A stretch of DNA of 64,000 bases from an uncultured Chloroflexia bacterium (GCA_963712005.1 CAVQGK010000024.1:1554046-1618045), one strand, 5' to 3'; shown: positions 46-64,000, counted from the first letter of the stretch. Numbers and translations are program-made. The notes: generated by a model not told the origin, from the letters alone.

Positions 46-1212
46 ATGCCGCTCGCCAGCCAGATAGAAGCCCTGTTCAGTCGCGCCGAACCGCGATTGC
101 AGCGGCTCGCCCGCGCGCGGCAGGTCGCGCCCGACGCGATAGACGACGTCATCCAGGAAACACTGCTGGAGGCCTGGAAATCGCTGGAGCAACTGCGCGA
201 TGAGACACGCTTCGTCGCCTGGCTGGATGGCATCTGCCGCAATGTTTGTCTGCGTTACCAGCGCAGGCAGGGCATCTTACGGACGCGCGAGACGCCGTTT
301 TCCCCCGGCGAGAGCGAGCCAGACGATGAATACGCGCTCGCCTTACAGCTTGCCGACCCTGACACGTTCGATCCCACCGAGGAGCTGAGCCGCCACGATA
401 TGACGCTGTTGCTCAATCGCGCGCTGGGCTATCTCTCGCCGGAGAGCCGGACGGCGGTGGAGCAGCATTATCTGGCGGAGGCGCCGCAGCGGGAGCTTGC
501 CGCGCGCATGGGTCTCTCGGTGAGCGCGCTGGAGGCGCGACTGCACCGGGCGCGGGGTCAACTGCTGCATGTCCTCAGCCACGATCTGCGCGACGACGCC
601 CTGGCGCTGGGGCTGGCGATTCTCCCCGCCGATGCCATTGACTGGCGCGAGACGCGGATCACCTGCTTTTACTGCGGCCAGGCGCGGATGTTGGGCATGT
701 TCGAGCCGATGGCCGACGGGCGCATCAACATGCGGCTGCGCTGTCCCGCATGCCAGCCGGTCGTGATCAACAGTCTCGGCATCGTCGATCTGGCGGCGGC
801 GCGCTCGTTCTTACCCGCCACGAAAAAGATCGTTCAGGAGATTGGGCAATATTTCCTGGATGCGCTTGCGGCCGATGGGATAACACAGTGCTGGATATGC
901 CAGCGGTCCACCCGATTGCGGATAATGAGTGATACCGCTGTTGCCCCCCACTATGGCGTACAGACCTGGCTTCAATCGAGTTGTGGATGCATCAGTTCGG
1001 GCATCTCAGCAATATCACCCTATGGAGTGCTTCCAGAGGTTCGCGATTTCATCTTCGGCGCCAGCGCCATCATCATCCTTCCTGAGATGGAGATGTGCTA
1101 TGCCGGGCAACGCGCAATCCGCTTTGGCGCGCTCAGCCCCGCCGACGGAAGGCGCCTCTACGTCTACGCCGATTGCCAGACCCTGCTGCCACTCGCGGTC
1201 ATCACCGAATAG
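46..1212 (+). CDS. ECF-type sigma-70 family RNA polymerase sigma factor with Cys-rich C-terminal extension
   Basis: 388-aa ORF. Region-2-like DDVIQETLLEAWK..FVAWLDGICRNV and region-4 HTH RELAARMGLSVSALEARLHRARGQL. The ~190-aa tail carries CFYCGQ..CPACQ and CWICQ Cys pairs. Confidence 0.8.
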   Translation: MPLASQIEALFSRAEPRLQRLARARQVAPDAIDDVIQETLLEAWKSLEQLRDETRFVAWLDGICRNVCLRYQRRQGILRTRETPFSPGESEPDDEYALALQLADPDTFDPTEELSRHDMTLLLNRALGYLSPESRTAVEQHYLAEAPQRELAARMGLSVSALEARLHRARGQLLHVLSHDLRDDALALGLAILPADAIDWRETRITCFYCGQARMLGMFEPMADGRINMRLRCPACQPVVINSLGIVDLAAARSFLPATKKIVQEIGQYFLDALAADGITQCWICQRSTRLRIMSDTAVAPHYGVQTWLQSSCGCISSGISAISPYGVLPEVRDFIFGASAIIILPEMEMCYAGQRAIRFGALSPADGRRLYVYADCQTLLPLAVITE

Positions 1213-1268
1213 CCCTTTTCACGGCTATTCCACCACGCTATCTCTGTCATCATCGGGAGGATTGTGTC

Positions 1269-2630
1269 ATGTCTGCGCTAGAAACCCCATCGGAGAGCAC
1301 GACGCCAGCCCGTGGGTCCGGGCCGCTCATCAACCGCAACTTCGCGCTGCTCTGGTCGGGGCAATCCATTTCCTTCATCGGCGATGCGCTGCTCGATTTT
1401 ACCTTCGCCCTCTGGATTGCCTTCGATCTCGGTCGCGGGCAGTCGTGGGCGCCGCTCGCGGTGAGCGGTGTGCTGGCCGCCTCTTCCGTGGGAACGCTCG
1501 TCATCGGCCCGATCTCAGGCGTCTTCGTGGACCGCTGGGATAAGCGCCGCACGATGCTGACGGTCATTCTGCTCCAGGCGTTCCTGTCCGCCACGCTGCT
1601 GCTCTTTGCCGATCTGACGCCGCTGCCATTTCTTCCCGGTGGACACCCCTCGCTCGAAGTGAAGCTGGTCGCGCTCTATGTCGTCATCTTCCTCGTCTAC
1701 GGTCTCGCGCAATTTGCCCGCGCGGCGCGCACCGCCCTCATCGGCGATATCGTCGCCGAGCCTGACCAACCGCAGGCGAGCGGGCTGATCGAGACGATGT
1801 CTGGTCTCTCGTTCATCATCGGCTTTGGCGTCGCGCCGCTGCTCTTCGTGCCGTTCGGCATCGGGATTGCGCTCCTGGCCGACGCGCTCTCGTTTGTGCT
1901 CGCCTTCCTCGCGATTCTGGCGGTCCATGCGCCGCCATCAGCCCGCAGTGTGAAACGGGGCGAGCGCGGCAACGTCCGCCGCGAATTCATCGCCGGATTA
2001 CGCTTCGCATTTGGCAATCTCGTCACGCGGACGCTGCTCATCACGCTGGTGATCGTGCTGTTTGGGTCGGGTGCGATCAATGCGCTCTTTGTCTTCTTTG
2101 TGGCGCAGGATCTGCACGCCTCACAGCAGGCAATCGGGCTATTCCCGGTGCTGCTTGGTGTGGGCGCCGTGCTGGGATCGCTACTGGGCGGCATGCTGGC
2201 GAAGCGCATTGGGCTGGTGCGCATCTTCTGGGGGTCTATCATCCTAGTAGGGATCGCCGCGATTGCGCTCTCGCGGCAGACCGCGCTGATCCCCGGCCTC
2301 GTCTGCGCCTTCCTGGTTGGCATACCTAACGGCGGGCTGAATGTGGCGCTGATGCCGCTGGTGCTGCGCGTTACGCCGAAGGAGATGGTAGGGCGCGTGA
2401 TGAATGTGATCGAGCCAGCCATGACCGTCGCGCAGGTGACCTCTATCGCCATCTTCGGGACGCTCGCCAGCACAGTCTTTGCCAGCTTCCACGCTGACCT
2501 GCTGGGGCAGGTGCTCGACGCCTACGACGCGCTCATCCTGCTTGCGGGGCTGCTCTGTCTGCTGGCGGGAGCGCTTGCCTTCACCAGCCTGCGCCGCGCC
2601 GACCTGTCCTCTGACACCTCAATGTCTTAG
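1269..2630 (+). CDS. MFS transporter
   Basis: ORF track 1095..2630. Internal ATG at 1269 is preceded by GGGAGG (1255-1260). About 12 hydrophobic helices and an MFS-like loop DRWDKRRTM. Confidence 0.85.
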   Translation: MSALETPSESTTPARGSGPLINRNFALLWSGQSISFIGDALLDFTFALWIAFDLGRGQSWAPLAVSGVLAASSVGTLVIGPISGVFVDRWDKRRTMLTVILLQAFLSATLLLFADLTPLPFLPGGHPSLEVKLVALYVVIFLVYGLAQFARAARTALIGDIVAEPDQPQASGLIETMSGLSFIIGFGVAPLLFVPFGIGIALLADALSFVLAFLAILAVHAPPSARSVKRGERGNVRREFIAGLRFAFGNLVTRTLLITLVIVLFGSGAINALFVFFVAQDLHASQQAIGLFPVLLGVGAVLGSLLGGMLAKRIGLVRIFWGSIILVGIAAIALSRQTALIPGLVCAFLVGIPNGGLNVALMPLVLRVTPKEMVGRVMNVIEPAMTVAQVTSIAIFGTLASTVFASFHADLLGQVLDAYDALILLAGLLCLLAGALAFTSLRRADLSSDTSMS

Positions 2631-2633
2631 CGC

Positions 2634-2657
2634 GGCGTCTCCACGTACGCCTTTTGG
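2634..2657 (+). terminator. weak rho-independent terminator candidate after the MFS gene
   Basis: GGCGT (2634-2638) pairs with ACGCC (2647-2651), followed by TTTT. The stem is only 5 bp. Confidence 0.35.
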
Positions 2658-2824
2658 CCATCGGTGTTGAACAGGACAATCCTCCCACTGTCGCCGGTAC
2701 GAATGGCTGCCTGTTTTGACGAGCGAGGGGCGAGACAATACCATGAAGCCACGGGGAAGCGACGGGACAGTGGCGGATGGGGAAGCCCCAGCCAGAAAGC
2801 CAGCAACCGAAGGAGAATACAACG

Positions 2825-3043
2825 ATGGCCAAGACGAAATCCAGCGGCGCGAGCCGCGAATTGAAACACGCCGCCGCCGAGGGGCATAAAGCGGCCAAGG
2901 CGGTACATAAGGTAGACAGCAGCGTCTACATGGCCGAGGTGCTGGCCAGCGGCAACCCGAAACGCATCCGCCGCTACTTCGTGCGCAAGTGGGCCTATAA
3001 GCTCTTTGGCAAATTCATGGGCAAAACGATCAACAAAATCTAG
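2825..3043 (+). CDS. small basic hypothetical protein (72 aa)
   Basis: ATG at 2825 follows AAGGAGAA. Lys/Arg-rich product MAKTKSSGASRELKH..FMGKTINKI. No family recognised. Confidence 0.5.
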   Translation: MAKTKSSGASRELKHAAAEGHKAAKAVHKVDSSVYMAEVLASGNPKRIRRYFVRKWAYKLFGKFMGKTINKI

Positions 3044-3198
3044 AAGCGCGAGCGGTTGAAACCGCGCCTGAATGGGCCTGCGGCCACAAAACTCGCCGTC
3101 GCAGGTTGCGGAACACGGGTACGCGTCCTCACGGTCTGGAGCCTGCGAAGGCAGGCTTGGCGGCGTAGCCCATAGGCGCGGCTTTAGCCGCCAGCTAT
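3044..3198. repeat. intergenic hairpin-cluster repeat (copy A)
   Basis: Stem-loops GCGGTTgaaAACCGC, AGCCTGCgaagGCAGGCT and GCGGCtttaGCCGC. The core 3138-3192 matches 63268-63328 in inverted orientation. Confidence 0.65.
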
Positions 3199-3792
3199 CT
3201 ACGACGGCCAGCGGGGATCGCTGGGAGTGAGGCTGAAGACCAGCGTGCTGCGCAGTTCGCCGTTGGCGTCGCGCGTGTCATTACGCAGGAGCGCCTCGCG
3301 CACGAAGCCCAGCCGCTCAGCCACCGCCGCGCTTCGCACGTTGCGTGCGTCACAGCGAATCATCACACGCTGTGCGCCCAGCGAGTCGAAGGCGAAGTCG
3401 GTCAGCAACCGCACCGTCTCGGCGACGTAGCCGTGCCCCTCGGCGCTGGCGCGAATCCAGTAGCCAATCTCGAACGCTGGCACATCCCAGCCGCGAATAT
3501 GCAGACCTGAGCCGCCCAGATAGCGTCCGCTGCTGGCCTCGAAGATGCCCACCGTCAAATCATCCTCTCGCAGCAGCCATTTCGCCTGAGTACGCAGGAT
3601 GAAGTCGCGTGTATCCTCGACGGTCTGGTGCTGCACGACCCATGGCAGCCAGGGCCAGAGGTGCTCGCGCGACTCATCGACAGCCGCGAAAAGCTCGTCC
3701 GCATCCTCCAGCCGGTAAGGGCGCACGACCACTTGCGGGCCGCGCAGCTCCTCGAAGAGCGGTATCAGCGTCCTGTGCCGGTACTGTTCCAT
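3199..3792 (-). CDS. GNAT family N-acetyltransferase (RimJ/RimL-like)
   Basis: ORF track 3199..3855; the likely start is MEQYRH at 3792. Acetyl-CoA-site-like GYWIRASAEGHGYVAETVRLL and RVMIRCDARNVRSAAVAERLGF. Confidence 0.8.
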   Translation of the reverse strand: MEQYRHRTLIPLFEELRGPQVVVRPYRLEDADELFAAVDESREHLWPWLPWVVQHQTVEDTRDFILRTQAKWLLREDDLTVGIFEASSGRYLGGSGLHIRGWDVPAFEIGYWIRASAEGHGYVAETVRLLTDFAFDSLGAQRVMIRCDARNVRSAAVAERLGFVREALLRNDTRDANGELRSTLVFSLTPSDPRWPS

Positions 3793-3922
3793 CAACGCGT
3801 ATCCTTTCACACTGTCTATGAGTCCGGTGATGTGCCGTATTTCATCTGGTATCATATGCTATCAGCCATTAAAGCTGCTATTGCCCGACTGCACCCGTCC
3901 GATGGAAGCGGAGAAACGTAAC

Positions 3923-4774
3923 ATGGACGCGAAAGCCATTGCCAATGGGACGCTGGCCGCGCTGGAGGCGGGCTACTACACCACACCCGACGACGGCGCG
4001 ACCGTTGCCATTCGCGACGCCCTTGCCGCCTGCGTGAGCAATACACGCTACTATGAGCCTGACGAACTGGACGCAATCTGCGGGCAGGTGGTGGCCCAGC
4101 CCGGCGCCGTCACAACGACCTTCGCCGTCGCGAACGAGACGACGCTCCAGGCATGCGCGCGGCTGGTTGCCAGCCAGCGGTACCAGCGCATCGGCGTCCT
4201 CAACTTTGCCTCGGCGCGCAAACCCGGCGGTGGCTTTCTGAATGGCGCACATGCACAGGAGGAGAGTCTGGCGCGTAGCTCAGGCCTCTACTATAGCCTG
4301 CGTCAGTATCCGCAATTCTACGAGTTCCATCGCGCCCAGGATACCACCCTCTACTCCGACCGCATGATGTACAGCCCGGCATGCCCGGTGCTGCGCGATG
4401 ACGAGGGCAATTGGCTGGCGCAACCGTATGTGGTGGACTTCATCACCAGCCCTGCGCCCAACGCGGGTGCGGTCACGCGCAACGAGCCTGCCAATCGCGA
4501 GCGCATCGTGCCGACCCTCACCGGGCGCGCGGGCAAGGTGCTCGCCCTCGCCGCTCACCATCAGTGCGAGGCGCTGGTGCTGGGGGCGTGGGGGTGTGGC
4601 GTCTTCCAGAACGACCCCGCGACCGTCGCGCAGGTCTTCGCGAGCTACCTCCACCCGGATGGCATCTTCGGCGGTCGGTTCCAGCATGTATCGTTCGCTG
4701 TCTATGACACATCGTATGCGCGGGAGACCATTGGCGCGTTTACAAAGTGCTTCGCGAGCTTTCCCGGCATTTGA
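3923..4774 (+). CDS. macro-domain, bacterial PARG-like protein (TIGR02452/DUF2263-like)
   Basis: Motifs GVLNFASARKPGGGFLNGAHAQEESLARSS and LVLGAWGCGVFQNDP. ATG at 3923 with GGAG upstream; ORF track starts at 3818. Confidence 0.75.
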   Translation: MDAKAIANGTLAALEAGYYTTPDDGATVAIRDALAACVSNTRYYEPDELDAICGQVVAQPGAVTTTFAVANETTLQACARLVASQRYQRIGVLNFASARKPGGGFLNGAHAQEESLARSSGLYYSLRQYPQFYEFHRAQDTTLYSDRMMYSPACPVLRDDEGNWLAQPYVVDFITSPAPNAGAVTRNEPANRERIVPTLTGRAGKVLALAAHHQCEALVLGAWGCGVFQNDPATVAQVFASYLHPDGIFGGRFQHVSFAVYDTSYARETIGAFTKCFASFPGI

Positions 4775-5653: not shown

Positions 5654-6499
5654 ATGGGCAAACTGATTGATAAACTCCAGCAGGTAAGACAATCTTCCAG
5701 CTCGGGTATTGGATTTTTTGGCCGCTCTCAGGCCGCCGCGTCGAAGCCGCGTCCGGCGGCGATTGTGGTGAGCGTTGGAGCGAAGGATACCGCCGCCGCG
5801 CAGTCCGCGGTGAAGGCCGGGGCCGATGCGCTGCTCTTCACCGGCTGGACACCCAAGAGTGACCTGAGCGCATTCACGGCGGCAACCAGCGCGGGGACGA
5901 CGCTGCTGGGCATCGGGCTGGCCGAGGGCGAGAGTGGCTCCTATGGCACGCTCAAGCAGCTTCGAGACGCGGGCGCGAGCTTCGCGGTCGTCGGCGCGGG
6001 CGCGTCGGCGCATATGCTTTTCGAGGAGTTGGACCACTTCGACCGCGTGGTGACATTCGATGCGCTGCAGGACGATTTGGCGCTTCTCCTGCTGCGCGTG
6101 CAGAATCTGGCGCCAGCGCAAGTGGCGCTGCTCCGTGTTGGCCTGAGCGCCGGCGCCATCGCGAAGATGTCCGTGACGGACTACACCCGGCTCAAGTTCG
6201 CGGTGGAGTCGCTCCGCTTCCCGGTGCTGGCGACGCTGGACGGCGCGCCGGAGACGCACAGCGTTCCCATTCTGGCGCGGCTCGGCTTCGCCGGTTTGGT
6301 GCTTTCGGGCGCTGGCGTGGGGCCGGACGCGCTGGGCACGCAGATCACGGCGCTGCGTGAGGAGCTGGAGCGGACGCCTATCTCGCACGACGAGTCCGGG
6401 TCCACCCTGCTCGGCGGTCTGGTCGGCCTCCAGGGGACTGGACTCACGCCGCAAAAGGAGCCTCAGCGGGAGCCAGAGCGCGACCCGGACCATGAATAG
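5654..6499 (+). CDS. hypothetical protein
   Basis: ORF track 5624..6499. Balanced composition with two similar Ala/Gly-rich halves. The overlapping 400-aa minus ORF is Arg-rich and looks like an antisense artefact. Confidence 0.55.
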   Translation: MGKLIDKLQQVRQSSSSGIGFFGRSQAAASKPRPAAIVVSVGAKDTAAAQSAVKAGADALLFTGWTPKSDLSAFTAATSAGTTLLGIGLAEGESGSYGTLKQLRDAGASFAVVGAGASAHMLFEELDHFDRVVTFDALQDDLALLLLRVQNLAPAQVALLRVGLSAGAIAKMSVTDYTRLKFAVESLRFPVLATLDGAPETHSVPILARLGFAGLVLSGAGVGPDALGTQITALREELERTPISHDESGSTLLGGLVGLQGTGLTPQKEPQREPERDPDHE

Positions 6500-6751
6500 C
6501 GGCGAGAAGTTGCTTTCAACGCCGTGCGGTTCCTCCCATATCGTGCCCGCAAAGCTGGTTGCGGCGCGGGCGTCCTGTGCGCATTGCAGCCCGGATGCAC
6601 TACGCCGTTGTACTATCAATGGCTGAATATGATACACTCGGCTGGGTACGCTACAGGGTGAGGATCACCCTCGGACGTTGTATGTGTTCGCCGATCAGTG
6701 CGGTGGCGAGGAGCCGTCGTGCGCGACATCCAGCGTGGGAGACAGAGGGGA

Positions 6752-7543
6752 ATGGGCACAGGCCGTTGGGACGATGATGGTCGCCGGGATCAGGGGCGGT
6801 CTCCACGAAACAGACGTATGGATGATGATCCACGTCAGAGCCGGATGGGCTCGCGCGATGGCGGTTCAAGCGGATGGGACCGTTCGTCACGCGATGGGTC
6901 ACGCTATCCACGGCGCGACGTAGATGATCAGGATAACGGCGGACGCGGCGGCTCGTATAACCGCGGCGGGCGCGCTGGTAGCTCCAATCGTGGCGGCTGG
7001 GATGACCCACGTGGCAGCCGCGGCGGCCCGCCAGACCGCTCCGGCGACCGCAGTGATCGCTCGATGCGTGGCGGGCGCCCGCCGGTGCGCGACGATTGGG
7101 ATGCGCCCTCACGCGGTCGTGGTGGCCCCGGTGGCAGTGGCGGTGGTTATCCCGGCGCGTCTCGCCGACCGCCACAGGGCGGAGGCCTCTGGGGTGATGA
7201 GCCACGGGGTGGCCGCCCACCTATGCGCGATCCACGCGACCCGCGCGCCGCGCGCGCTGGTGGCAGAAGGCCCATGGCGCCCGAGCCGGAAAAAGGCGAG
7301 TTCACCTTTGGCAGAAGCGCAGGGATTATAGCCGGTATGTTTCTGCTGGGCGTGGGCGTCGCGTTTATCATATTCATGGTCACGCGGCCCACACCACAAC
7401 TGGATAACACGCCAGCCGTGCCTACTAACACGGCTCCAGCGACAACACCGAGTACCGCGCCTAATGTGACGCCGTCGCCCGCTGGGTATGCCCCTGGCGC
7501 TGGTCCCGCGTATGTGGTCGTGAGTGTGGGCGCTATCGGGTAG
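6752..7543 (+). CDS. Arg/Gly/Asp-rich low-complexity protein with a C-terminal TM anchor
   Basis: ATG at 6752 follows GAGGGGA. Five W-D/W-G motifs in an RGG/RDD-rich region, then TM IIAGMFLLGVGVAFIIFMV and a Pro/Thr-rich tail. Confidence 0.55.
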   Translation: MGTGRWDDDGRRDQGRSPRNRRMDDDPRQSRMGSRDGGSSGWDRSSRDGSRYPRRDVDDQDNGGRGGSYNRGGRAGSSNRGGWDDPRGSRGGPPDRSGDRSDRSMRGGRPPVRDDWDAPSRGRGGPGGSGGGYPGASRRPPQGGGLWGDEPRGGRPPMRDPRDPRAARAGGRRPMAPEPEKGEFTFGRSAGIIAGMFLLGVGVAFIIFMVTRPTPQLDNTPAVPTNTAPATTPSTAPNVTPSPAGYAPGAGPAYVVVSVGAIG

Positions 7544-7588
7544 CATGGCGGTGTATGTGGAGTGGATTCCAGGAAGGCAGCAACGGGT

Positions 7589-8044
7589 ATGAGCGACGCA
7601 ACGCCGCAGGCTTCGGTCGAGGAGCGGCTGCGCAATGACCTCAAAGATGCGACACGGCAGCGCGATCAGGTGCGGATGGATACCATTCGTATGGCGCTGG
7701 CGGCATTCCGCAATGAAGAGGTCACCGGCTCGCGCCACGAGCTGACCGAGCAGGAGCGCCAGGCCATCCTGGATAAGCTCATCAAGCAGCGCCACGAGTC
7801 CGCCGAGCTATTCCGAACCGCCAAACGCGACGAGCTGGCTGAGAAGGAAGAGCGCGAGGCGGCGATGCTGGCGGCGTATCTCCCCGCGAAGCTGACCGAC
7901 GACGAGATTCGCGCGGTCGTCTCGCGGCTGATCGCGAAGCACGGCAAGGAGTTCCGCACGGTGATGCCACTGGCCTCGAAGGAGACGAAGGGCCGCGCCG
8001 ACGGCAAGCGCGTCAGCGAGATCGTCCGCGAAATGACGGCGTAA
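7589..8044 (+). CDS. GatB/YqeY domain protein
   Basis: LRNDLKDATRQRDQVRMDTIRMALAAFRNEEV and C-terminal GRADGKRVSEIVREM, typical of the YqeY family. Confidence 0.85.
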   Translation: MSDATPQASVEERLRNDLKDATRQRDQVRMDTIRMALAAFRNEEVTGSRHELTEQERQAILDKLIKQRHESAELFRTAKRDELAEKEEREAAMLAAYLPAKLTDDEIRAVVSRLIAKHGKEFRTVMPLASKETKGRADGKRVSEIVREMTA

Positions 8045-8073
8045 TCAACTTTCAACCGAAACCTCCAGTGAAA

Positions 8074-8112
8074 GCAGGCTCTCAGAGATGGGAGCCTGCG
8101 CTCTTCTTTCCA
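8074..8112 (+). terminator. rho-independent terminator after the yqeY-like gene
   Basis: 8-bp stem GCAGGCTC (8074-8081) / GAGCCTGC (8092-8099), 10-nt loop, then a T-rich tract CTCTTCTTTCC. Confidence 0.6.
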
Positions 8113-8189
8113 CTATCTCTCGTCCGGACACGTCCGTTGCCGCCTGGCATGCCCTCATGACAGAATACCTGTTGGGAACGGAGATCACC

Positions 8190-8741
8190 ATGTCAGGGCA
8201 GCGGTGGCGCGAGACAAGCTGCTACGATCCTCGTGTGGAGATTCGCCCGTTTGGCATCCAGGGTGGCGGGATGTATGCCCGTGCGCCGATTCATGCGGGC
8301 GTGACGGTCGCCATCATCGGTGGCACGCCGATGACCGACGCCGAATTCGCCGCCTATCGTGGGACCGTTGAGCGGTATAATGCGTCACAGATTGGTGAAG
8401 ACCTGCATCTGGTCGATCTGATTCAGACGCCTGATCAGGTAGAAGGCTCCATCAACCACTCGTGCGACTCTAATTTGTGGATGAACGACGAGGTGACCAT
8501 AGCCGCCCGCCGCGATATCGCGGCGGGCGAAGAGCTGACGCTCGACTACGCGCTGGTGACGAGCGACCCCGGCTGGCGGCTGGATCGTCCCTGCCAGTGC
8601 GGTTCGCCGCTCTGCCGCCACACCGTCACTGGGAGCGACTGGCGCCTGCTCGACGTGCAGCGGCGCTACGCGGGCCATTTCGCGCCGTTCCTGAATACGC
8701 GCATCGAAACGCTCAACAGGCTCACAGACGAGAAGAAATGA
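8190..8741 (+). CDS. SET domain protein (putative lysine methyltransferase)
   Basis: INHSCDSNLW, EELTLDY and post-SET CQCGSPLCRH motifs. Start chosen at MSGQRW (8190) downstream of the terminator. Confidence 0.8.
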   Translation: MSGQRWRETSCYDPRVEIRPFGIQGGGMYARAPIHAGVTVAIIGGTPMTDAEFAAYRGTVERYNASQIGEDLHLVDLIQTPDQVEGSINHSCDSNLWMNDEVTIAARRDIAAGEELTLDYALVTSDPGWRLDRPCQCGSPLCRHTVTGSDWRLLDVQRRYAGHFAPFLNTRIETLNRLTDEKK

Positions 8742-9699: not shown

Positions 9700-10893
9700 G
9701 CTGGGGTTGACACTCCGCATAGGCTCAAGCCGTAGCGGATTCTCAGTTCTGCGGGGCGGCCTACGCCACCTCTCCCGGAGGGCCTGCCCGGCCCTTTCTA
9801 TGTTCTTCGCCGCGTTGTGGTCTCTATGGAGCGATGTTCCGCACGCTGGGCAGCTATGCCAGCGGACGGATAAGCCCTTCCTTGACCATCACACCACAGC
9901 CAGAACACGTCTGGCTGGTATAGGCAGGGTTGACCACCACCACTGAACGACCGGCGCATGCTGCCTTGTGGTTCAGGATGCTCAGGAACCCACTCCATCA
10001 AGCGTCCGCAATGGACTTGGCCAGATGGTGGTTCTTCACCATATTGGCGACCTGCAACTCTTCGTGATAGATCACATCGAATTGGCGCACGAGCGCGAGC
10101 GCCGTCTTGTGCTGGAAATCCTGCCGTTGCCGCTTCACTTTCAGATGCGCTTTCGCCAGCAACTTGACCGCTTTCTTACGGCGTTTGCTGCCCTGCTTGC
10201 GACGCGACACCTTGCGCTGTGCCGTTTTGAGTCTGCGCTCGGCCCGGCGATAGCAGCGTGGATTGTGGATCATAGTGCCATCGGCCAGGGTGGCGAAAGA
10301 CTCCAAGCCCCAGATCAATGCCTGTCTCTTGCCCCACCGGCGCTAGTGGCTGTATTGGTACCTCGGCGCACGAGATGCACACATACCAGCCATCGGCCTC
10401 ACGAGAGATCGTGACGGTCTTGGGGACGCCTTCCAGTCGGACGAGAACACCGCACCGCGATGCGCCCAATCTTGGAGAGAATCAGAAAACCGTTATCGAG
10501 CCGCGCGCCGTTGCCGAATTACTTATAGGTGAAACTGTGATAACGTTCACATCCCTGAAAGCGGGGGAAGCCTGGCGTTTGTCCTGCGTTGCTCTCCTTC
10601 ACCCGACGAAAGAACGCCTGGTAGGTTTTGTCGAGCCGGGTCAAGACATCTTGCAAGACCTGCGAGTGTATCTCCCCATAGTCAGGGAATGCCGCCTTCA
10701 CCTCGGGTAGCTCGGCGTGATGCTGGTAGCAGGTGAAGGTGACACCCCGTTGGCGGTAGAGGAAGATGCGCTGCTCCAACGCCGTGTTGTAGAGCATACG
10801 GCAATACCATACAACCTCCCCAAGCTGGCGCTCCTGTTCCATCGTCGGCTTGAGTTTGTACTTGTAGGCTTTGCGCAGACTCTCGTCACTCAC
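9700..10893 (-). pseudogene. tnpB: RNA-guided endonuclease TnpB, disrupted
   Basis: GTG start at 10893. Pieces found: KYKLKPT..GFPRFQG, GIDLGL, YHEELQV, CSGCG..CPACG, HRDHNAAKNI. At least 3 frame changes plus an in-frame TGA at 9998-10000. The 3-prime limit is uncertain. Confidence 0.85.
9707..9800 (-). ncRNA. omega-RNA / right-end-like structured segment of the TnpB element
   Basis: Minus-strand CTGAGAATCCG-stem-CGGAGTGTCAA (9707-9746) overlaps the tnpB 3-prime end. The same module recurs at 28777-28815. Confidence 0.45.
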
Positions 10894-54499: not shown

Positions 54500-55563
54500 A
54501 ATCCGCAGGGAATGTTGTAGTCTGAGGGCATGAGACAAGTCAAGGTGGCTCAGCATCTGAGCGTGGAACAACTTGAGCACCGCTATCGCCGTGCCCAGGA
54601 GCCGCACGAGCGCAGTTGGTGGCAGATCCTCTGGTTGCTGGCACGCGGTCAGACGGCGCGTCAGGTGGCCGAGAGTACAAGCTACTCCGCCTATTGGATT
54701 GGGCAACTCGCGCAGCGCTACAACCGATACGGACCAGACGCAATGCGCAATCGACAACGTTTCTCCTCGGGTGGCTCGTATCGACGCCCGAGGTTGCTCT
54801 CGGCGGAACAGCAGGATGAGTTGCGCCAGGCGCTCGCTGGACCGCCGCCCGGAGGAGCGGCGGGGGATCTGTGGACGGCGCGGGCGGTCGCCGCGTGGAT
54901 GAGTACGCGCTTGGGCCGTGCTGTCGCCATCCAGCGGGGCTGGGACTACTTGCAGCGCCTGCAGTACAGTCCGCAAGTGCCGCGGCCTCGCCACACCCAG
55001 GCGGACCCGGAGATCCAAGCCGCCTTCAAAAAAACCTCCGCTCCCTCCTGAGGAGCGTGGCAGACGCCTTTCCGCAGGCCGCGGTCGAACTCTGGGCAAC
55101 CGATGAACATCGCATTGGCCTCAAACCGATTTTGCGGCGGGTGTGGGCGCCACGCGGACAGCGGCCAGTGGCTCCGGTTCAACATCGTTACGCCTGGCGC
55201 TACCTGGTGGGCTTTGTCCATCCCGCCTCAGGTCGTACGGTGTTTCATCTGGCGACCACGGTCAGCATCGCGCTCTTTGAGGTGGAGTTGGCCGAATTCG
55301 CCCGTCAAGTCGGTGCGGGACCCCGCAAAGAAATCGTCCTCGTCCTTGACCGTGCCGGCTGGCACCGTAGCGTCAAGGTACGCGTCCCCGAGCACGTCCA
55401 CTTGCTGTTCTTGCCCGCCTACTCGCCCGAGCTCCAGCCCGCCGAGCATCTCTGGCCGCTCACCAACACGGTGCTGGCCAATCGCCACTTCGCCTCGCTC
55501 GACGACCTTGTTCCGCTGGTGGCCCCAACGCATTCGGAGACGACAAGGACCCAGACAGAACTA
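54500..55563 (+). mobile_element. IS630-family insertion sequence (copy 1), two-ORF transposase with an A7 slippery run
   Basis: orfA 54530..55051 (HTH). The DDE part in the -1 frame has LWATDEHRIGL and FLPAYSPELQPAEHLW. A7 run at 55028-55034. The C-terminus appears shortened. Ends are not defined. Confidence 0.75.
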
Positions 55564-56587
55564 GAGCAACTTTCACTGTGTTTGAGCAGGCAGGGCGTAG
55601 CCGGCGTGAGCGAACCAGGCACTCGCGTCCGCGGGCGTGATCGCGTCGAGCGCCAGCCGCACCGCCTCCCCTAACGCCTCATGGGTGCGAGCGCCCAGTC
55701 CGCGCAAGATAGCCTTGAGCTTCGAGAATGCCTGCTCAATCGGGGTGAAGTCTGGCGAGTAGGGCGGGAGAAAGAGCAAGTCGCAGCCGCGCGCGGCCAG
55801 CGCTTGCCGAATGCTGGCGGCTTTGTGCACACTCAAGTTATCGAGTACGACGACTTGCCCCGGTCGCAGCGTTGGCCCCAGTTGCTCGCTGATGTACCAG
55901 GCAAAGGTCGGTGTTATTCATCGCTCCCTCAATCAGCCACGGTTCGCGCAGCCCCTCTGGCGTGAGGGCCGCCACCAACGTCGTATTCTTGCCATGATTG
56001 CGTGGTACCGATCCGGTTGCCCGCTGGTCATGTGGCGCCCAGCCATAGAGCCGGATCAAGGACGTGTGGGTACCACTTTCGTCGACGAAAACGAACTGCG
56101 CGGGGTCGAGGGAGGCGACCGCCGCCCGCCAGGCTGCGCGTGCCGTCTCGTCACGCACGGCACGGCTGCCAGTGTCTTTTTTTATGCGTCCACCCGAGCC
56201 GGCGCACGGTCCGCCACATGGTGGCTTCACTCAGCTGCTGGCCAGAGTGCTCGGCCCACCAGGCGCAGTGCTCCAGCACGGTGGCATCGGGTGCGGTCTG
56301 CAGCCGAGCCAACACGAGCGCTTCCTGCTCGCGACGGATCGCGCGCGGGCGGCCAGGACTCAGGCGGTGCTCCAGGGAGCCGGTCGTGCGCTGCTGCACC
56401 ACGGCGCGTTTCACCGTCGTCACCGCCACCTCAAAGCGGCGCGCGACTTCTCGCATGGGCAGACCGTGTGCCATCATTGGCCACCGCGCGCACCAAGCGT
56501 TCTTTCAGATCGGTCGAATAGGCACGCATGCCCCGCTATGCCGCATATTCCGTGCCTCCATCTGCCGCTGCTTTTCGCAAGTTGCTC
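55564..56587 (-). mobile_element. IS630-family insertion sequence (copy 2), degraded transposase
   Basis: 9-bp terminal inverted repeats GAGCAACTT (55564-55572) / AAGTTGCTC (56579-56587), each flanked by TA. Transposase pieces MRAYSTDLKERL, PMREVARRFEV, FVDESG, FLPPYSPDFTPIEQAF lie in at least 4 frames. Confidence 0.8.
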
Positions 56588-58998: not shown

Positions 58999-59529
58999 CT
59001 ACACGGTCAATGTATCAAGTGCGAATACTGTTCCGCGCTTGCCGACGCTCGCCAAGACCTTCGGAAGTTCTGCACGCGCCCACAGCAACACGCCGTCCCG
59101 CGCCACGTTAGCAACAAAGAGTTCGTCCCAGCCGGAAAGGTCAGGCGTCGTCAAAATCGCCTGTATCCCGTGGGCTGGAACCTGATGCATATGTTCGCGC
59201 TCGCCGATGGTGTGGTGCAGCGTAACCATCACATCGAGCGGCAATGGGTCCTCGTGCGCTGCGGCATGTACCAGCACCAGCAGGTCAACATCACTTGGCC
59301 GATGATGCGATAATGGCCGCTCCTCATGGCGTGCCAACGACCCAAAGAGTATCAACGCAACGACCTCAGGATGCATGGTTGCCAGGTCTGCCGCGACGGC
59401 CGACAGTAGCTCAGCGGTTCCCGAGTCCAGCCACGGCAGACGTCGCAAGAGATTCGAGGCGTCTATATCACAAGGAGCTGGCTGAACCGCCATATCCTCA
59501 TTGTTATCAGCTCCCAACTCTGTGCCCAT
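58999..59529 (-). CDS. minimal nucleotidyltransferase (MNT-type)
   Basis: LFGSLARHEERPLSHHRPSDVDLLVLV, matching the GSxxR..SDxDLLV motif. An alternative start is at 59493. Confidence 0.65.
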   Translation of the reverse strand: MGTELGADNNEDMAVQPAPCDIDASNLLRRLPWLDSGTAELLSAVAADLATMHPEVVALILFGSLARHEERPLSHHRPSDVDLLVLVHAAAHEDPLPLDVMVTLHHTIGEREHMHQVPAHGIQAILTTPDLSGWDELFVANVARDGVLLWARAELPKVLASVGKRGTVFALDTLTV

Positions 59530-59873
59530 GTACGAATCTCCTGCCAGAGATCATGCGCTTTCTGGACATACGAGGCGTCGGTATGATGTCCGTAGAATCC
59601 ACCCTGGCGTAGACTTTCTAACGTAGTCCACCAGTCGGCTACTGCTGTTTCAGCAACATCCCGTAGGAATCGCGCTAAACCTTCGTGTTTCTCTTTGTGC
59701 TTACTGTGCAGACGCTGACAGCCATACGCTATCCACTCGAACGCAGCGCCCCAGTACAACTCAATCAGCGCCCGTCCATTGTAAGGGCGAGTGGCAAGCA
59801 TGCTCAAGTCACCCGGTTCAGCTATGGAAAGCTCCAATTCAAGCGCTGCGTCACGATGCGCATCACCATTCAT
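59463..59873 (-). CDS. HEPN-like protein
   Basis: All-helical 136-aa ORF with an Rx6H element LRQGGFYGHH. It overlaps the MNT gene start. Lower G+C. Confidence 0.5.
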   Translation of the reverse strand: MNGDAHRDAALELELSIAEPGDLSMLATRPYNGRALIELYWGAAFEWIAYGCQRLHSKHKEKHEGLARFLRDVAETAVADWWTTLESLRQGGFYGHHTDASYVQKAHDLWQEIRTWAQSWELITMRIWRFSQLLVI

Positions 59874-59971: not shown

Positions 59972-60565
59972 CTATGGCAGTGGGTCAGGCGGGAGTACGC
60001 CGCCACTGGCGACGCGGCTGCGTGGCGGTTGGGATGAGGCTGGTGGCGGGGGTGTGAACTCCGCACCGGCGGCGCACCAGAAACAGAGCATCACCGACCA
60101 GAGGCCCAGCAGGAAGAGTGGCGGCGCGACGCGGTGGACGAGCAGGCCAATGATGAGTAGCAGCGCCAGCGCAATCCCATAACCGGCCATCAGCGGGCGG
60201 ATGGTGACGAAGCGCATCATATCGCGGGCGGTGCGCGAGATGATATCGCGGGCTGGTCGTGCCTCATCCAGCAGCCACCAGAGCGGCACAAATACGATTG
60301 CGGTGAGCACGCCAGCGCCGACGATCAGCAGGAAAAACTGGATGATGCCAGGGAAATCGCCGAAGCCGCAGAGACCGCCCAGCACACAGCTATTGCTTGG
60401 GCCGTAGAGATAGAGTAGATAGCCGATGAGCAGCGCCGGATTGTAGATCGCGGCGATAGCCAGCAGCATCCGTGGCGTGATGTGGCCCACGGGTCGCATC
60501 TGCGCGGGCGTCGTGGCGCCGTTCATTGGCCGGGGATTCGTCTGGCCGTAGGGATCTGTCATCAT
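59972..60565 (-). CDS. 4-TM membrane protein, function unknown
   Basis: The ATG at 60565 lies 11 nt after the upstream stop, with AGGTGG upstream. Four hydrophobic helices and a Pro-rich C-terminus. Confidence 0.6.
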   Translation of the reverse strand: MMTDPYGQTNPRPMNGATTPAQMRPVGHITPRMLLAIAAIYNPALLIGYLLYLYGPSNSCVLGGLCGFGDFPGIIQFFLLIVGAGVLTAIVFVPLWWLLDEARPARDIISRTARDMMRFVTIRPLMAGYGIALALLLIIGLLVHRVAPPLFLLGLWSVMLCFWCAAGAEFTPPPPASSQPPRSRVASGGVLPPDPLP

Positions 60566-60576
60566 CGGCGCGCCAC

Positions 60577-63231
60577 CTATCCCTGGCTTCTTCCGCGCTG
60601 CACCCTGATGGAGTCGGATGTCCAATCAGGCGTTGGCAGCGAGGGGTGGGTGTGTACAGTGCGATGACGCCAGAATGTCGGTGTCGTGCCGCCGGGCAGC
60701 AGCCGCAGCGTCGCCAGCCATTCGCGGTCCTCCAGGCCAAGCGTCACCAGCCCGCGCTGTTTGCTCGTGCGCAGAATGGCGAGCTTATCCTCTTCGCGCG
60801 CCGCCATGAAGACCGAGGCCGCGCGTGGCTGGTCCTCCGGCTGATAGAGAATCACCGAGCGGTCCACCAGCGTATCAAAGAGGCTGTTCGACGAATCGGC
60901 GGGCATGGCGTCGAGCGCGCCACTCAGATAGACCAGATCGCCCGTCAGATAGGGGCGCACAATCTCATGGCAGTACTCACGGATCGGCGGCAGCAGCGCC
61001 AGCACCGGCGAATCCACCAGGCTGGCGCTTATGTGGAGACGGGCGCGTAGCTGAAGCAGTAGCTCGTGCTGGTTGCTGTGCCACAGCGCGCCCTCGATGG
61101 GCCGAATCTGGCGCAGCTTGCTCACGTCTTCCTCGAAGCGCCGCAGCGAGTAGCCATCCAGCTTTAGCCGCCGCCGATTCGCCACCAGAATATCACGCCG
61201 CCCGACCGCGCCGTTGAAGAGGCGCAGTTCGATGCTGTCGGCCTCGTCGCGCAACGTGCGCGCAACCTCGCCGATGAAGCGTTCCCAGTTCGCCAGCCGG
61301 TCCAGAATGCGCTCGGTTCGCTGGCGCAGACCCTGCAGCGCCTCCGCTCGCAACTCATCCTCATATTCATCGCAGCGGTAACGGTACATCGTGCGGTAGA
61401 CCTTGCGCAGATCGGCAAGGGCATCCTCGTGTTGCCGTCTCCGCCAGGCGGCGTAGCCCCATGAGGCAAGCGCCACCAGCGCCACCGAGTAGACGGCGAG
61501 CAGCGGCAGCGAGAACATGCCGCCGCGTGTAGGCGTCGCCAAAATAGCATCCAGAAGCAGCGCCAACATCGGGACGAACAATAATCCGGCGCCGACGAAG
61601 GTAGCCACTGCGGGCCGGTGGCGCTTCATCCAGCGATAACGCGCCGTCAGCCGCTCGATCAGCGCCGCCTCGCGGGTCAGCTCCGGCTCGTCGGGCTGAC
61701 GGACGATGTCAGCCTCCCATGGACCTTTGCTCTCGTCTTCCAGCGTCTCCAGAAAGCGGAGGTAGCGCGCGTTGCGTGCGCCCCGGCCAAGCGTCTGGCT
61801 CTCCTGCTCGGCCATCAGCGCCTGATGCAGACCATCCATGTAGGCATAGGCGCGTTCGACGCCGATGGCGCCCTCCAGCACCTGATCGTTCGCCTTCGTC
61901 GAGAGCGCGCGCTCGGTCTCGTGACCGTAGCGCTCCCATGCCGGTTTGACGACCTCCTGCCAGGCAGCGAAGCCCTCTTCGGCGCGTGGAAGCTGGTTAT
62001 CGAGCGCGGTCGGCTCGTCGGTGCGGGCGGTGATATAGCGGCGCACCACCGCCAGGCTGAAGTGGCGGAATACGAGCGTTCTGGCGGCTTCATCCGGCGG
62101 CAACTGGTGCTCGCGGGAGCGGCGGCGCGAACGGCGTCCCTCATTGTGGCGGAGCGCCGCCACCACGGAGTCGCTATCGCGCATCTCGGCGCTGATGCCG
62201 CTCAGGTAGCGGCGGGCCTCGGCGGCCTCGCGGCGCTGCTCCTGGTCGGAGAGATCGGTGGCTTTTTCCGGCGCCCACTCGTCGAGGATGGTCGCGCCGA
62301 GGCGGCTGGCGCAGTACAGCTCAGCCTGCGCGCGGGGGAAGGTCAGGCGGCTCGTGCCCACACTGCTCATCCGCTCGAACGACTGGCGCACCATGTTCGG
62401 CGTGGCCTGCCGTAGCGTCTCCTCGTACTCGCGCGTGGTGGTGATGCCGGTCGCGGTCAGCACGAAGATCGCCTCCGCCGCGCCATAGGCGACCTCATCC
62501 GGGCCTTCCCAGAAGTGGCCTTTCTCGTCGTGTGTCTCGAAGAGATAGGCGTAGGTCGCCAGCGGCGGCCCTTTAGATGGGCTGAACTGGCCCGGCTGAG
62601 CAGGCATCTCATCGCCCAGGAGCAGCTCGCGCCAGGGCTGATCGGCGACGCGCTCTTCCTGCGCCAGATGCTCGGCGGGATCGTGTGGGTACGTATTGGT
62701 GAGCGCCAGCAACACCCACGACTCGACGCTCTCGCTCCGCATCGACCTGCGCACATCGCGCGCGACATCGAGCAGCAGCGGCGAGTCGGCGGCGGCGGCG
62801 ATCCAGACCACCGCCATCGCCCGGGGCACGCTATAGCCATTCTCTCGGATATGTCCCACGACGGCATCGTCCAGCACGCCACGGCGCACCTGCGACTCTG
62901 GCATCGAGCGCGCATAGTGCTCGTAGTGTTGGCCGCGCAGTCCTTCGGTCACGAGGGTTGGTAATGGGCGGCGGTCCATGCTGATGGGCGTATCGTCGGG
63001 CAGGGGGCCCGGCTGGCTGGCGACGGCGCTGAGGCCCGGATCGTACCACGCGCCCAGCAGCGCGCCGTCATCGCTACGTTCGTCATCAACCGTGAGCAGC
63101 GCGATACCTGCCTGGCGCGCGCCATCCAGCCCCGGCATCAGCATGGAGAGTTGCGCGCCCACCTCGCGGCCACGCTCGCCCACACAAAGGACGATCGTTG
63201 GTCGGAAGCGAATCGGCGTCGAGGTCGCCAC
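60577..63231 (-). CDS. large (884 aa) two-TM protein with a possible degenerate tubulin/FtsZ-like N-domain
   Basis: GTG at 63231 has AAGGAG 6 nt upstream; the ORF track extends to 63429 across a hairpin repeat. IVLCVGERGREVG, LLTVDD, VVWIAAAADSP. Two TM helices are encoded near 61430-61620. Confidence 0.7.
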   Translation of the reverse strand: MATSTPIRFRPTIVLCVGERGREVGAQLSMLMPGLDGARQAGIALLTVDDERSDDGALLGAWYDPGLSAVASQPGPLPDDTPISMDRRPLPTLVTEGLRGQHYEHYARSMPESQVRRGVLDDAVVGHIRENGYSVPRAMAVVWIAAAADSPLLLDVARDVRRSMRSESVESWVLLALTNTYPHDPAEHLAQEERVADQPWRELLLGDEMPAQPGQFSPSKGPPLATYAYLFETHDEKGHFWEGPDEVAYGAAEAIFVLTATGITTTREYEETLRQATPNMVRQSFERMSSVGTSRLTFPRAQAELYCASRLGATILDEWAPEKATDLSDQEQRREAAEARRYLSGISAEMRDSDSVVAALRHNEGRRSRRRSREHQLPPDEAARTLVFRHFSLAVVRRYITARTDEPTALDNQLPRAEEGFAAWQEVVKPAWERYGHETERALSTKANDQVLEGAIGVERAYAYMDGLHQALMAEQESQTLGRGARNARYLRFLETLEDESKGPWEADIVRQPDEPELTREAALIERLTARYRWMKRHRPAVATFVGAGLLFVPMLALLLDAILATPTRGGMFSLPLLAVYSVALVALASWGYAAWRRRQHEDALADLRKVYRTMYRYRCDEYEDELRAEALQGLRQRTERILDRLANWERFIGEVARTLRDEADSIELRLFNGAVGRRDILVANRRRLKLDGYSLRRFEEDVSKLRQIRPIEGALWHSNQHELLLQLRARLHISASLVDSPVLALLPPIREYCHEIVRPYLTGDLVYLSGALDAMPADSSNSLFDTLVDRSVILYQPEDQPRAASVFMAAREEDKLAILRTSKQRGLVTLGLEDREWLATLRLLPGGTTPTFWRHRTVHTHPSLPTPDWTSDSIRVQRGRSQG

Positions 63232-63260
63232 GCGCTGCTCCTTGCTTATAGTTGTCCGAA

Positions 63261-63470
63261 AGGCGCTGGCGGCTAAAGCCGCGCCTAAGGGTTGCTGCGC
63301 AACCGCGAAGCCTGCCTTCGCAGGCTCCAGAACGCGAACCAGTGCTCTATGCTCTCTTGCGAAGGCTCTTGCCACGCACTGACGCGCTAAACCTGCGGCG
63401 ACAACACCGCATATGCCATAGGCGCGCATCGGGCAGGGTTAGCTGCGGCATTCATGCCGCGAACCCGCCC
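63261..63470. repeat. intergenic hairpin-cluster repeat (copy B)
   Basis: GCGGCtaaaGCCGC, GGTTGCtgcGCAACC, AGCCTGCcttcGCAGGCT, GCGGCAttcaTGCCGC nested inside GGGTT..AACCC. The core matches copy A. Confidence 0.65.
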
Positions 63471-63655
63471 AACCACAAAGCTTGCCCTTGATACCGCCGC
63501 CTCGTCCACTTATGGACGGGACCGCGGCCGCCAAAGGTAAACACGCCACCTGCTACTACAAACTACTTCGTCATGTGAGGGAGACGGAATCACGCCACCC
63601 ACATATACGTCCTATAGCTATTTTCGGTTTTCAGCGCCAGTGGTCGGCGACACTG

Positions 63656-64000
63656 CTAAAAGTTCGACCCGCCATATCCGCCCGTACCACCAGCGCCGCC
63701 ACGTGGATACGTTGGCTGTTGCTGTGGATACTGCCCGTTGGATGGCCCGGCTGGCGCGGTTGGAGCATAGGCGCTACCCGGCTGGCTCGTCGCCGCCCAG
63801 GTGGGCGCGTCGCCCGCGCCGCGCTGCACTTGTCGGATGATACGCTCTGGCAGCGTGAGTTTTCCATCGCCTAGCGCCTGAGCATGCATCACCAGCCGCT
63901 CCATCTCGCCGGAGCTAAAGACCGGCGCGCGGCTCTGGCCGTAGGGGCGCTGGCCTGTTGGGTCAAACCAGAAGAACTGGTGGCGCATGAACTCGCCCAT
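63656..64000 (-). CDS. C-terminal part of a gene running off the window, function unknown
   Basis: Open to the window edge. Ends in a Pro/Gln/Gly/Tyr-rich tail ..GGAGGTGGYGGSNF. Confidence 0.5.
   Translation of the reverse strand: MGEFMRHQFFWFDPTGQRPYGQSRAPVFSSGEMERLVMHAQALGDGKLTLPERIIRQVQRGAGDAPTWAATSQPGSAYAPTAPAGPSNGQYPQQQPTYPRGGAGGTGGYGGSNF

Follow-up and report, generated by a model that had tools for sequence, protein, structure and literature searches.

A putative degenerate FtsZl1 paralogue with a transmembrane hairpin in a conserved four-gene cassette of Chloroflexota

A 64,000-nucleotide (nt) stretch of DNA from an uncultured Chloroflexia bacterium (GCA_963712005.1, CAVQGK010000024.1:1554046-1618045; hereafter the window) carries on its minus strand a gene for an 884-amino-acid (aa) protein, referred to here as the target. 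In our judgement, the target is probably a highly diverged, GTPase-dead and membrane-tethered paralogue of the FtsZl1 protein encoded directly upstream, acting as a non-enzymatic partner in a four-gene module that would form a cytoskeleton-like system. The tubulin/FtsZl1 ancestry of the target, taken by itself, is likely. An earlier examination of the DNA sequence alone (the original prediction) had proposed a giant protein with two transmembrane helices and a degenerate tubulin/FtsZ-like N-domain, coupled to a partner with four transmembrane helices, and had raised a possible location in defence islands.

The target gene and its conserved neighbourhood

Open reading frame (ORF) calling gave a minus-strand ORF spanning 60577..63429, within which the coding sequence was assigned to 60577..63231 from homologue starts and a family alignment. 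Approximately 60 homologues, nearly all of 880–900 aa, open with the pattern M-x-x-x-P-[IL]-x-F-[RK]-P-T, and because their N-termini begin at the GTG at 63231, this codon was taken as the start of the 884-aa protein. A ribosome-binding site, AAGGAG, was read from the sequence 6 nt before the GTG (63238..63243, minus strand) and is identical in 7 of 7 aligned relatives. The longer reading of 950 aa from the ATG at 63429 was excluded, since both the homologue starts and the ribosome-binding site sit at the GTG. The ORF had thus been located correctly by the original prediction, although its description as giant was not upheld, as 884 aa counts as large. In one related locus from a long-read metagenome-assembled genome (MAG; L006), the target frame is broken at its 5′ end, with the ORF beginning at 10171 and the tblastn match at 10001; an assembly indel is the likely cause, rather than a true pseudogene.

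A hidden Markov model (HMM) search of 1.84 billion representatives showed that the target family comprises 153 clusters at 50% identity. The members with an organism name all belong to Chloroflexota, except for one MAG labelled as a Nitrososphaerota archaeon. No enzymatic family of Pfam, NCBIfam or PADLOC matched the target at threshold, and the protein encoded downstream belongs to no family of these three collections, in agreement with the earlier claim that the gene pair holds no enzymatic motif.

Upstream of the target, the window edge cuts an FtsZl1/Tubulin_2 gene, of which the 3′ end (the last ~114 codons and the stop) occupies 63656..64000 on the minus strand. The original prediction, confined to the window, had missed this decisive part of the context. 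The fragment was identified by tblastn against L005, a Ktedonobacterales locus that is 94% identical to the window locus: it is 81% identical to residues 803–902 of a 927-aa L005 protein, which in turn matches Pfam Tubulin_2 (E 1.3e-19, 71 bits). Tubulin_2 corresponds to the FtsZl1 family, which was defined computationally and is found in operons with vWA and lineage-specific membrane proteins (Makarova & Koonin 2010, PMC2875224). In the neighbouring FtsZl1 proteins FLGGGTGSG is invariant and is accompanied by a tubulin T3-like GAGGIRNNG motif, and these proteins contain no transmembrane segment. Downstream of the target, a 197-aa multi-transmembrane partner (59972..60565, minus strand) begins with an ATG at 60565, 11 nt after the target stop codon (TAG, 60577–60579). 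This spacing is the one given in the original prediction; the partner, presented there as having four transmembrane segments, is described here as a 197-aa multi-transmembrane protein.

The order vWA (~850 aa), FtsZl1 (~910 aa), target (~885 aa) and multi-transmembrane protein was found in 16 complete related loci; in these relatives the vWA gene lies two genes upstream of the target, a position outside the window itself. The remaining loci miss members through contig ends alone, and no counter-example to the order was found where flanks exist. The same order is present in Ktedonobacter racemifer DSM 44963 (ADVG01000004.1, 1515618–1538149) and is also kept at two distant loci, one in a Chloroflexia MAG and one on a further metagenome contig. 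Among the 24 related loci fetched first, 19 carry a partner homologue directly downstream of the target, and five (L008, L010, L015, L018 and L021) are truncated at the downstream end. The two genes are adjacent in every related locus with downstream sequence, confirming the co-occurrence that had been anticipated.

In the vWA protein, a signal peptide is accompanied by immunoglobulin (Ig)-like beta-sandwich domains, a MIDAS motif (DMSGS), a single transmembrane helix and a cytoplasmic tail that is highly charged. In some clades a fifth, soluble protein of 210–285 aa is added, which the window's clade lacks. Across clades FtsZl1 is 58–72% identical and the target 38–48%, a difference that fits an active core accompanied by a faster-evolving accessory paralogue. 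One metagenome contig (L028) bears two target-family copies, at 285–2918 on the plus strand and at 5871–8588 on the minus strand; the second stands behind its own FtsZl1-like gene, and the cassette can therefore be duplicated within a genome.

Architecture and FtsZl1-like features of the target

The full-length AlphaFold2 (AF2) model of the target (pLDDT 76.8) displays an N-domain of alternating beta-alpha elements. This Rossmann-like alpha/beta domain covers residues 1–325 (62257..63231, minus strand, as are all target features) and is putatively tubulin/FtsZl1-like, as suggested by a sub-threshold Pfam match, hhalign and weak Foldseek matches. It is followed by an Arg/Glu-rich region of long helices at residues 329–537 (61621..62247; R 15%, E 12%), which AF2 modelled with pLDDT ~90, and by a transmembrane hairpin at residues 540–597 (61441..61614), with hydropathy peaks at residues 540–568 and 570–595 and a loop of ~10 residues. 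Positively charged sequences, RYRWMKRHR and WRRRQHED, flank the hairpin, and since these Arg-rich flanks occur on both sides, both ends of the hairpin and both large domains of the target are placed in the cytoplasm. The hairpin helices agree with the two transmembrane helices that had been predicted near 61430–61620. The C-terminal domain (residues 598–884; 60580..61440) contains an invariant GRRD..AN motif and is mostly helical, as indicated by AF2 and the family alignment. Its description as a 284-aa Arg/Glu-rich helical domain was accurate as to the mostly helical fold, but the last 285 aa of the protein are rich in Arg and Leu (R 13%, L 15%, E 7%), and they finish with a small alpha/beta unit.

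The three motifs on which the original prediction had been based, IVLCVGERGREVG, LLTVDD and VVWIAAAADSP, were all recovered, with key residues that are conserved in homologues. The first (residues 13–25; 63157..63195) is equivalent to the T1 region, the second lies at residues 45–50 and is itself conserved, and the third (residues 141–151; 62779..62811) is equivalent to the T4 signature, from which the glycine loop has disappeared. Across the family, G21 and W143 are invariant, and G25, A147 and P151 are conserved at 90% or more.

A relationship between the target and its FtsZl1 neighbour was suggested by profile comparison, below formal thresholds. The hhalign signal emerged only once distant members found in the search of representatives had been added to the family profile; the enlarged profile aligned with the N-domains of the neighbouring FtsZl1 proteins over ~290 co-linear columns, with E values of 2.2e-4 to 5.9e-4 and scores of 35.8–38.9. 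The co-linearity spans S1, S2, S4/T4, S5, S6 and the FPR motif, and it pairs IVLCVGERGREVG of the target with LNIFLGSTPAYSA of FtsZl1, IALLTVDD with VALVFLDID, VVWIA----AAADSP with VNIVAFLGGGTGSG, YAYLFETH with EVYLFGKT, and VGTSRLTFPRA with FGTTCPLEVAFPA, so that T1 and T4 both fall where they had been guessed from the sequence. With the first template, the reversed controls scored 15 and the 8 block-shuffled controls reached at most 21.0; with the second, 30 of 30 block-shuffled controls stayed below the real score of 38.9, by a modest margin (maximum 33.0).

Pfam matches pointed in the same direction. The target matched PF13809 (Tubulin_2; profile length 356) at 14.2 bits and E 0.026, below the gathering cut-off of 27 bits, with residues 226–316 on profile positions 262–355. 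Of 27 family members, 22 gave sub-threshold matches in the same register (~262–355), the best of them at E 8.7e-5; in addition, the family member P0016 has a precomputed PF13809 match and P0168 a weak one. The Pfam and hhalign registers agree, as residue 226 of the target and residue ~280 of FtsZl1 both fall at profile position 262. The proposed identification of the N-domain through Pfam is thus backed by Tubulin_2 matches in a common register, though at sub-threshold scores. Of the two outcomes named in advance as refuting the original prediction, a lack of any tubulin/FtsZ-like similarity and a separation of the two genes elsewhere, neither was observed. Furthermore, hhalign aligned the C-domains of the target and FtsZl1 co-linearly, if weakly (E 4.2e-3; score 29.6, against at most 24.8 for controls), and the two proteins are equal in length and share the layout of an N-domain, long helices and a helical C-domain.

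Structure searches with Foldseek were also performed. Tubulins were by far the commonest matches of the full-length AF2 model, mainly beta-tubulins and BtubB, at a probability of 0.9–0.97, E 0.02–0.1 and TM-scores of 0.26–0.31; these tubulin matches are weak. The top match was BDLP (E 1.8e-3), which was dropped as a fold match because superposition gave a root-mean-square deviation of ~39 Å and TM-scores of 0.12–0.15.

In contrast to FtsZl1, which has GGGTGSG at the T4 position, the target shows AAAADSP in the window's clade, in a loop shortened by 4 residues and left without glycines. Distant family members are mostly IVG.A.DS-like at this position, and a GGGTGSG-like loop was found in 0 of 20 of them at the aligned position. 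The T3-like GAGGIRNNG of FtsZl1 aligns to EGLRGQ in the target, where just R99 and G100 are invariant. Because both the T4 and the T3-like glycine motifs have been lost, canonical GTP binding, as judged from sequence, is unlikely across the whole target family. Moreover, the nucleotide-loop half of the PF13809 profile remained unmatched in every family member tested, as expected from a degenerate site.

Proposed mechanism and alternative readings

From the gene structure, family, synteny, motif loss and topology signals described above, we infer heterodimerisation, tethering and a cellular role along the following lines. The module, conserved in Ktedonobacteria and related Chloroflexota, comprises a vWA membrane protein, an intact FtsZl1, as its third member the putatively dead, anchored paralogue, and a small multi-transmembrane protein. 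The vWA member is predicted to be a membrane protein of type I: its MIDAS-bearing vWA domain would face the outside and its charged tail the cytoplasm, and it also has Ig-like domains. The target would have lost its glycine-rich loops, and a transmembrane hairpin would have been acquired after the central helices, ahead of the C-terminal domain. Soluble FtsZl1 would supply GTP-dependent assembly, and the N-domain of the target, probably together with its homologous C-domain, may pair with this active protein. As a tether or regulator, and not as an enzyme, the target would hold or regulate the FtsZl1 assembly at the cytoplasmic membrane face, close to the small membrane protein and to the tail of the vWA protein.

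An envelope, membrane-remodelling or morphogenetic function in these filamentous bacteria is the most likely cellular role. Published readings comprise membrane remodelling, with FtsZl1/Tubulin_2 predicted as the core of a membrane-remodelling machine (Makarova & Koonin 2010, PMC2875224), and nucleoside triphosphate (NTP)-dependent conflict (Kaur et al. 2020, PMC7159879). The morphogenetic role was favoured because the order and sequence of the cassette are conserved, the flanks are variable and mostly metabolic, and neither a PADLOC match nor, in Pfam scans, a GAP1-type GTPase was found among the cassette proteins.

The second published reading would make the module an NTP-dependent conflict system (immunity- or abortive-infection-like), in which the target serves as a membrane-inserted effector or anchor, damaging or remodelling the membrane upon assembly of the FtsZl1 polymer. 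Neighbourhoods combining tubulin-domain and vWA genes have indeed been described as conflict systems; they are enriched in multicellular bacteria, and their Firmicutes versions contain two tubulin genes (PMC7159879). These GAP1-N2 GTPase-centric systems resemble the target cassette in several respects: the tubulin bears a helical/coiled-coil C-extension, the membrane vWA protein has an extracellular domain and a beta-rich domain, the hosts are multicellular, and paired tubulin genes occur in Firmicutes. In addition, TRIP13-like and CDC48-like AAA+ ATPases follow the cassette in distant relatives, STAND-type genes lie upstream of it in L005 (cyclase-AAA_16) and L027 (NACHT), and a nucleotidyltransferase gene with a small ORF, as well as IS630 copies, lie near it in the window. 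We nevertheless consider a conflict function unlikely, though the TRIP13-like ATPases of distant versions and the occasional STAND neighbours keep it in play. None of the vWA protein, FtsZl1, target and partner has a PADLOC match, and the matches to PADLOC-DB 2.0 were confined to non-conserved neighbours, one in L005 (a cyclase domain resembling PycC) and one in L027 (a TRIP13-like AAA protein). Pfam scans of the submitted cassette proteins, made with no dedicated GAP1-N2 model, contained no P-loop GTPase, and neither the GAP1-N2 GTPase nor the FNIII-repeat protein of the described systems was found in the cassette; moreover, one of its tubulin-like genes is degenerate and membrane-inserted, and its lineage is Chloroflexota. 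The flanks differ by genome and are mostly metabolic (arginase, purE, Cyclase-family, thiamine pyrophosphate-dependent enzyme and sulfate/ABC transport genes), the STAND neighbours are not conserved among loci, and the conserved gene order and slowly evolving FtsZl1 are unlike patchy, fast-turnover defence islands. With no PADLOC match in the cassette and no conservation of its flanks, the suggested defence-island location found no support.

Several results weigh against our preferred reading of the target as a diverged, inactive FtsZl1 paralogue. No single homology test passes a conventional significance threshold, and the Pfam evidence lies below the gathering cut-off. A BLASTP comparison between the target and its FtsZl1 neighbour gave no match, and neither did hhalign with shallow alignments, whether full-length or N-domain only; default hhalign gave E 0.09–0.12, and with a 38-member alignment only S1-H1-S2 was recovered (E 0.091). 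Extra homologue searches for a diverse FtsZl1 profile yielded just 33 close Ktedonobacterales fragments. HMM searches of PDB sequences gave noise only, and Foldseek produced no match at E≤1e-3 for the target models, with TM-scores of ~0.3. An AF2 model of the N-domain only (pLDDT 71, with residues 265–301 under pLDDT 50) was poorer than the full-length model and less tubulin-specific, as its Foldseek matches mixed tubulins with generic Rossmann-like folds (MctB/SteB, FabG, UbiX and vWA). As for the pseudo-GTPase of the original prediction, the probable loss of nucleotide binding is deduced from motifs, namely the degenerate T4 and T3-like loops. Finally, literature searches found no experimental study of any FtsZl1 system.

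The N-domain might be a generic Rossmann-like fold unrelated to tubulin, and the target a lineage-specific membrane component of a vWA/FtsZl1 operon; the Tubulin_2 signals would then have arisen by chance from a beta-alpha-beta pattern. All similarity measures under formal thresholds and block-shuffled controls that reach 33 against a real score of 38.9 would be compatible with such an origin, and many lineage-specific, unrecognisable and often membrane-bound proteins occur in FtsZl1 operons (Makarova & Koonin 2010, PMC2875224). This explanation is improbable in our view, as the PF13809 matches repeat at common positions in most of the members and in a register that agrees with hhalign, the C-domains are also co-linear in adjacent proteins of equal size and layout, and Foldseek of the full-length model favours tubulins. 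The remaining alternative, in which the target is no passive tether but binds nucleotide non-canonically and forms an obligate, co-polymerising heterodimer with FtsZl1, like alpha/beta-tubulin or BtubA/B, could draw on the small residues kept at the T4 loop (AAAA[DS]SP, or IVG.A.DS in distant members), on G21 and G25 kept in T1 and on a tandem arrangement of paralogues that resembles BtubA/B, itself among the Foldseek matches, but it is very improbable given the shortened, glycine-free T4 loop, the loss of GAGG.RNNG and a nucleotide-loop half of PF13809 that is matched in no member.

The reading of the target as an inactive, membrane-anchored FtsZl1 paralogue was also compared with known systems. 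FtsZl1 proteins of PF13809 (PMC2875224) and the target are alike in size (~900 aa, range ~900–1050) and in their layout of an N-domain (putatively tubulin-like in the target), long helices and an alpha-helical C-domain, the target gives weak but consistent profile matches to the family, and FtsZl1 operons and the target locus alike contain a vWA protein and lineage-specific membrane proteins. Unlike FtsZl1, the target lacks both GGGTG[ST]G and GAGG.RNNG and falls under the Pfam threshold; unlike its FtsZl1 neighbour, it has a transmembrane hairpin, and it is always the second copy beside an intact FtsZl1. The alpha/beta-tubulins and BtubA/BtubB are likewise paired paralogues of one superfamily in which GTP is turned over at one site only, but in tubulin both subunits bind GTP and keep the signature loop, tubulins have neither a membrane anchor nor a 500-aa C-extension, and any relationship to the target is very distant. 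In its proposed role the target would resemble FtsA, ZipA and SepF, which hold a tubulin-superfamily polymer at the cytoplasmic face of the membrane; these proteins have folds unrelated to FtsZ, whereas the target would be a tether derived from an inactivated copy of the polymer subunit. BDLP/mitofusin proteins share the arrangement of an alpha/beta head, helical bundles, a membrane hairpin and a helical domain, with both ends cytoplasmic, but the target has no dynamin G-motifs and no Pfam dynamin match and superposes poorly, so that the analogy is one of layout only.

FtsZl1/vWA operons and the tandem tubulin-domain genes of Firmicutes are already known. Our literature searches found no description of a membrane-inserted FtsZl1 paralogue without GTPase motifs, and the constant pairing of an intact FtsZl1 with a loop-less membrane copy in Ktedonobacteria suggests a means of membrane access through an active/dead pair. 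The target would add one more pseudo-enzyme kept as the partner of an active paralogue. More speculatively, and with little probability attached, the active/dead tubulin pair might form a membrane-bound heterodimeric or capped polymer linked through the membrane to an extracellular MIDAS vWA receptor, in an integrin-cytoskeleton-like arrangement serving multicellular filamentous Chloroflexota in envelope morphogenesis or in cell-cell or surface sensing; on that reading, the target would be the first tubulin-fold protein turned into an integral-membrane tether. As Ktedonobacter racemifer DSM 44963 is cultured and bears the cassette, localisation, pull-down and deletion work is feasible.

The upstream spacer and flanking genes

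A variable spacer of 424 nt separates the FtsZl1 gene from the target (63232..63655, minus strand). When it was aligned with six relatives, large indels were seen, and the only invariant part was GCAAGGAGCAG before the start, which contains the ribosome-binding site. Its length is specific to the window's clade; the corresponding spacers of other clades measure 29–83 nt. The spacer has no Rfam match, its minus strand contains no promoter-like site, and its fold z-score against shuffles is modest (-2.55). The 210-nt multi-hairpin leader of the original prediction was accordingly reinterpreted as a piece of this variable spacer, which lies behind an upstream co-directional gene. A specific regulatory RNA was dropped as an explanation of the spacer, given the lack of an Rfam match, the poor conservation and the finding that its clearest hairpins belong to a dispersed repeat.

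This two-hairpin repeat occupies 63264..63330 on the minus strand, and a second copy lies at 3130–3196 of the window on the plus strand. The copies are identical or differ by at most one mismatch across both hairpins, and the repeat is missing at this position in L009, L010 and L007. It is ~70 nt long and intergenic, with two GC-rich hairpins (GAGCCTGCGAAGGCAGGCTT ... TAGGCGCGGCTTTAGCCGCCAGC), and its variable presence among close relatives resembles that of repetitive extragenic palindromes (REP) or miniature inverted-repeat transposable elements (MITE). A second element, GGCGTGATTCCGTCTCCCTCAC, is located at 63575–63596 (minus strand) in a conserved block at ~63560–63630, ~60 nt past the FtsZl1 stop, and is single-copy in the window. 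The block is exact in L005 and L009 and partly retained in L006, L010 and L007; it could be a clade-specific regulatory element or a terminator or promoter element.

On the downstream side of the cassette, two overlapping ORFs at 58999–59873 (minus strand) encode a 176-aa protein with a Pol-beta-type nucleotidyltransferase domain and a 136-aa protein that has no Pfam match. Relative to L005, they form an insertion of ~930 nt between the multi-transmembrane and Cyclase-family genes. In layout the two resemble a nucleotidyltransferase/HEPN-type toxin-antitoxin pair, with a tentative HEPN assignment.

Among the related loci, L005 contains, upstream of the cassette at 824–4045, a gene whose 1073-aa product joins an adenylate/guanylate cyclase to a STAND-like ATPase (AAA_16); the cyclase domain matches the Pycsar PycC models (E 1.5e-14). 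Since it is present in L005 and L009 only, this gene is probably outside the module. In L026 (11093–19023) and L027 (11121–19022), the cassette is followed by three small proteins, a 67–78-aa protein and further conserved genes. The genes after the cassette include a CDC48-like AAA+ ATPase, a helical protein of ~590 aa and a TRIP13-like AAA+ ATPase, the last of which matches PADLOC TRIP13 (E 1.9e-81); this gene set points to a more extensive system of regulated assembly in these relatives. Radical SAM genes were also seen, one of the AmmeMemoRadiSam type upstream in L027 and one downstream in L026.

Farther from the cassette in the window, two IS630-type elements, each with a helix-turn-helix and a DDE_3 transposase, lie on both strands at 54530–56477. 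The plus-strand element is split into overlapping frames at 54530–55051 and 54871–55674, and the minus-strand element is in three pieces at 56151–56477, 55838–56230 and 55573–55836; both copies are probably frameshift-expressed or decayed.

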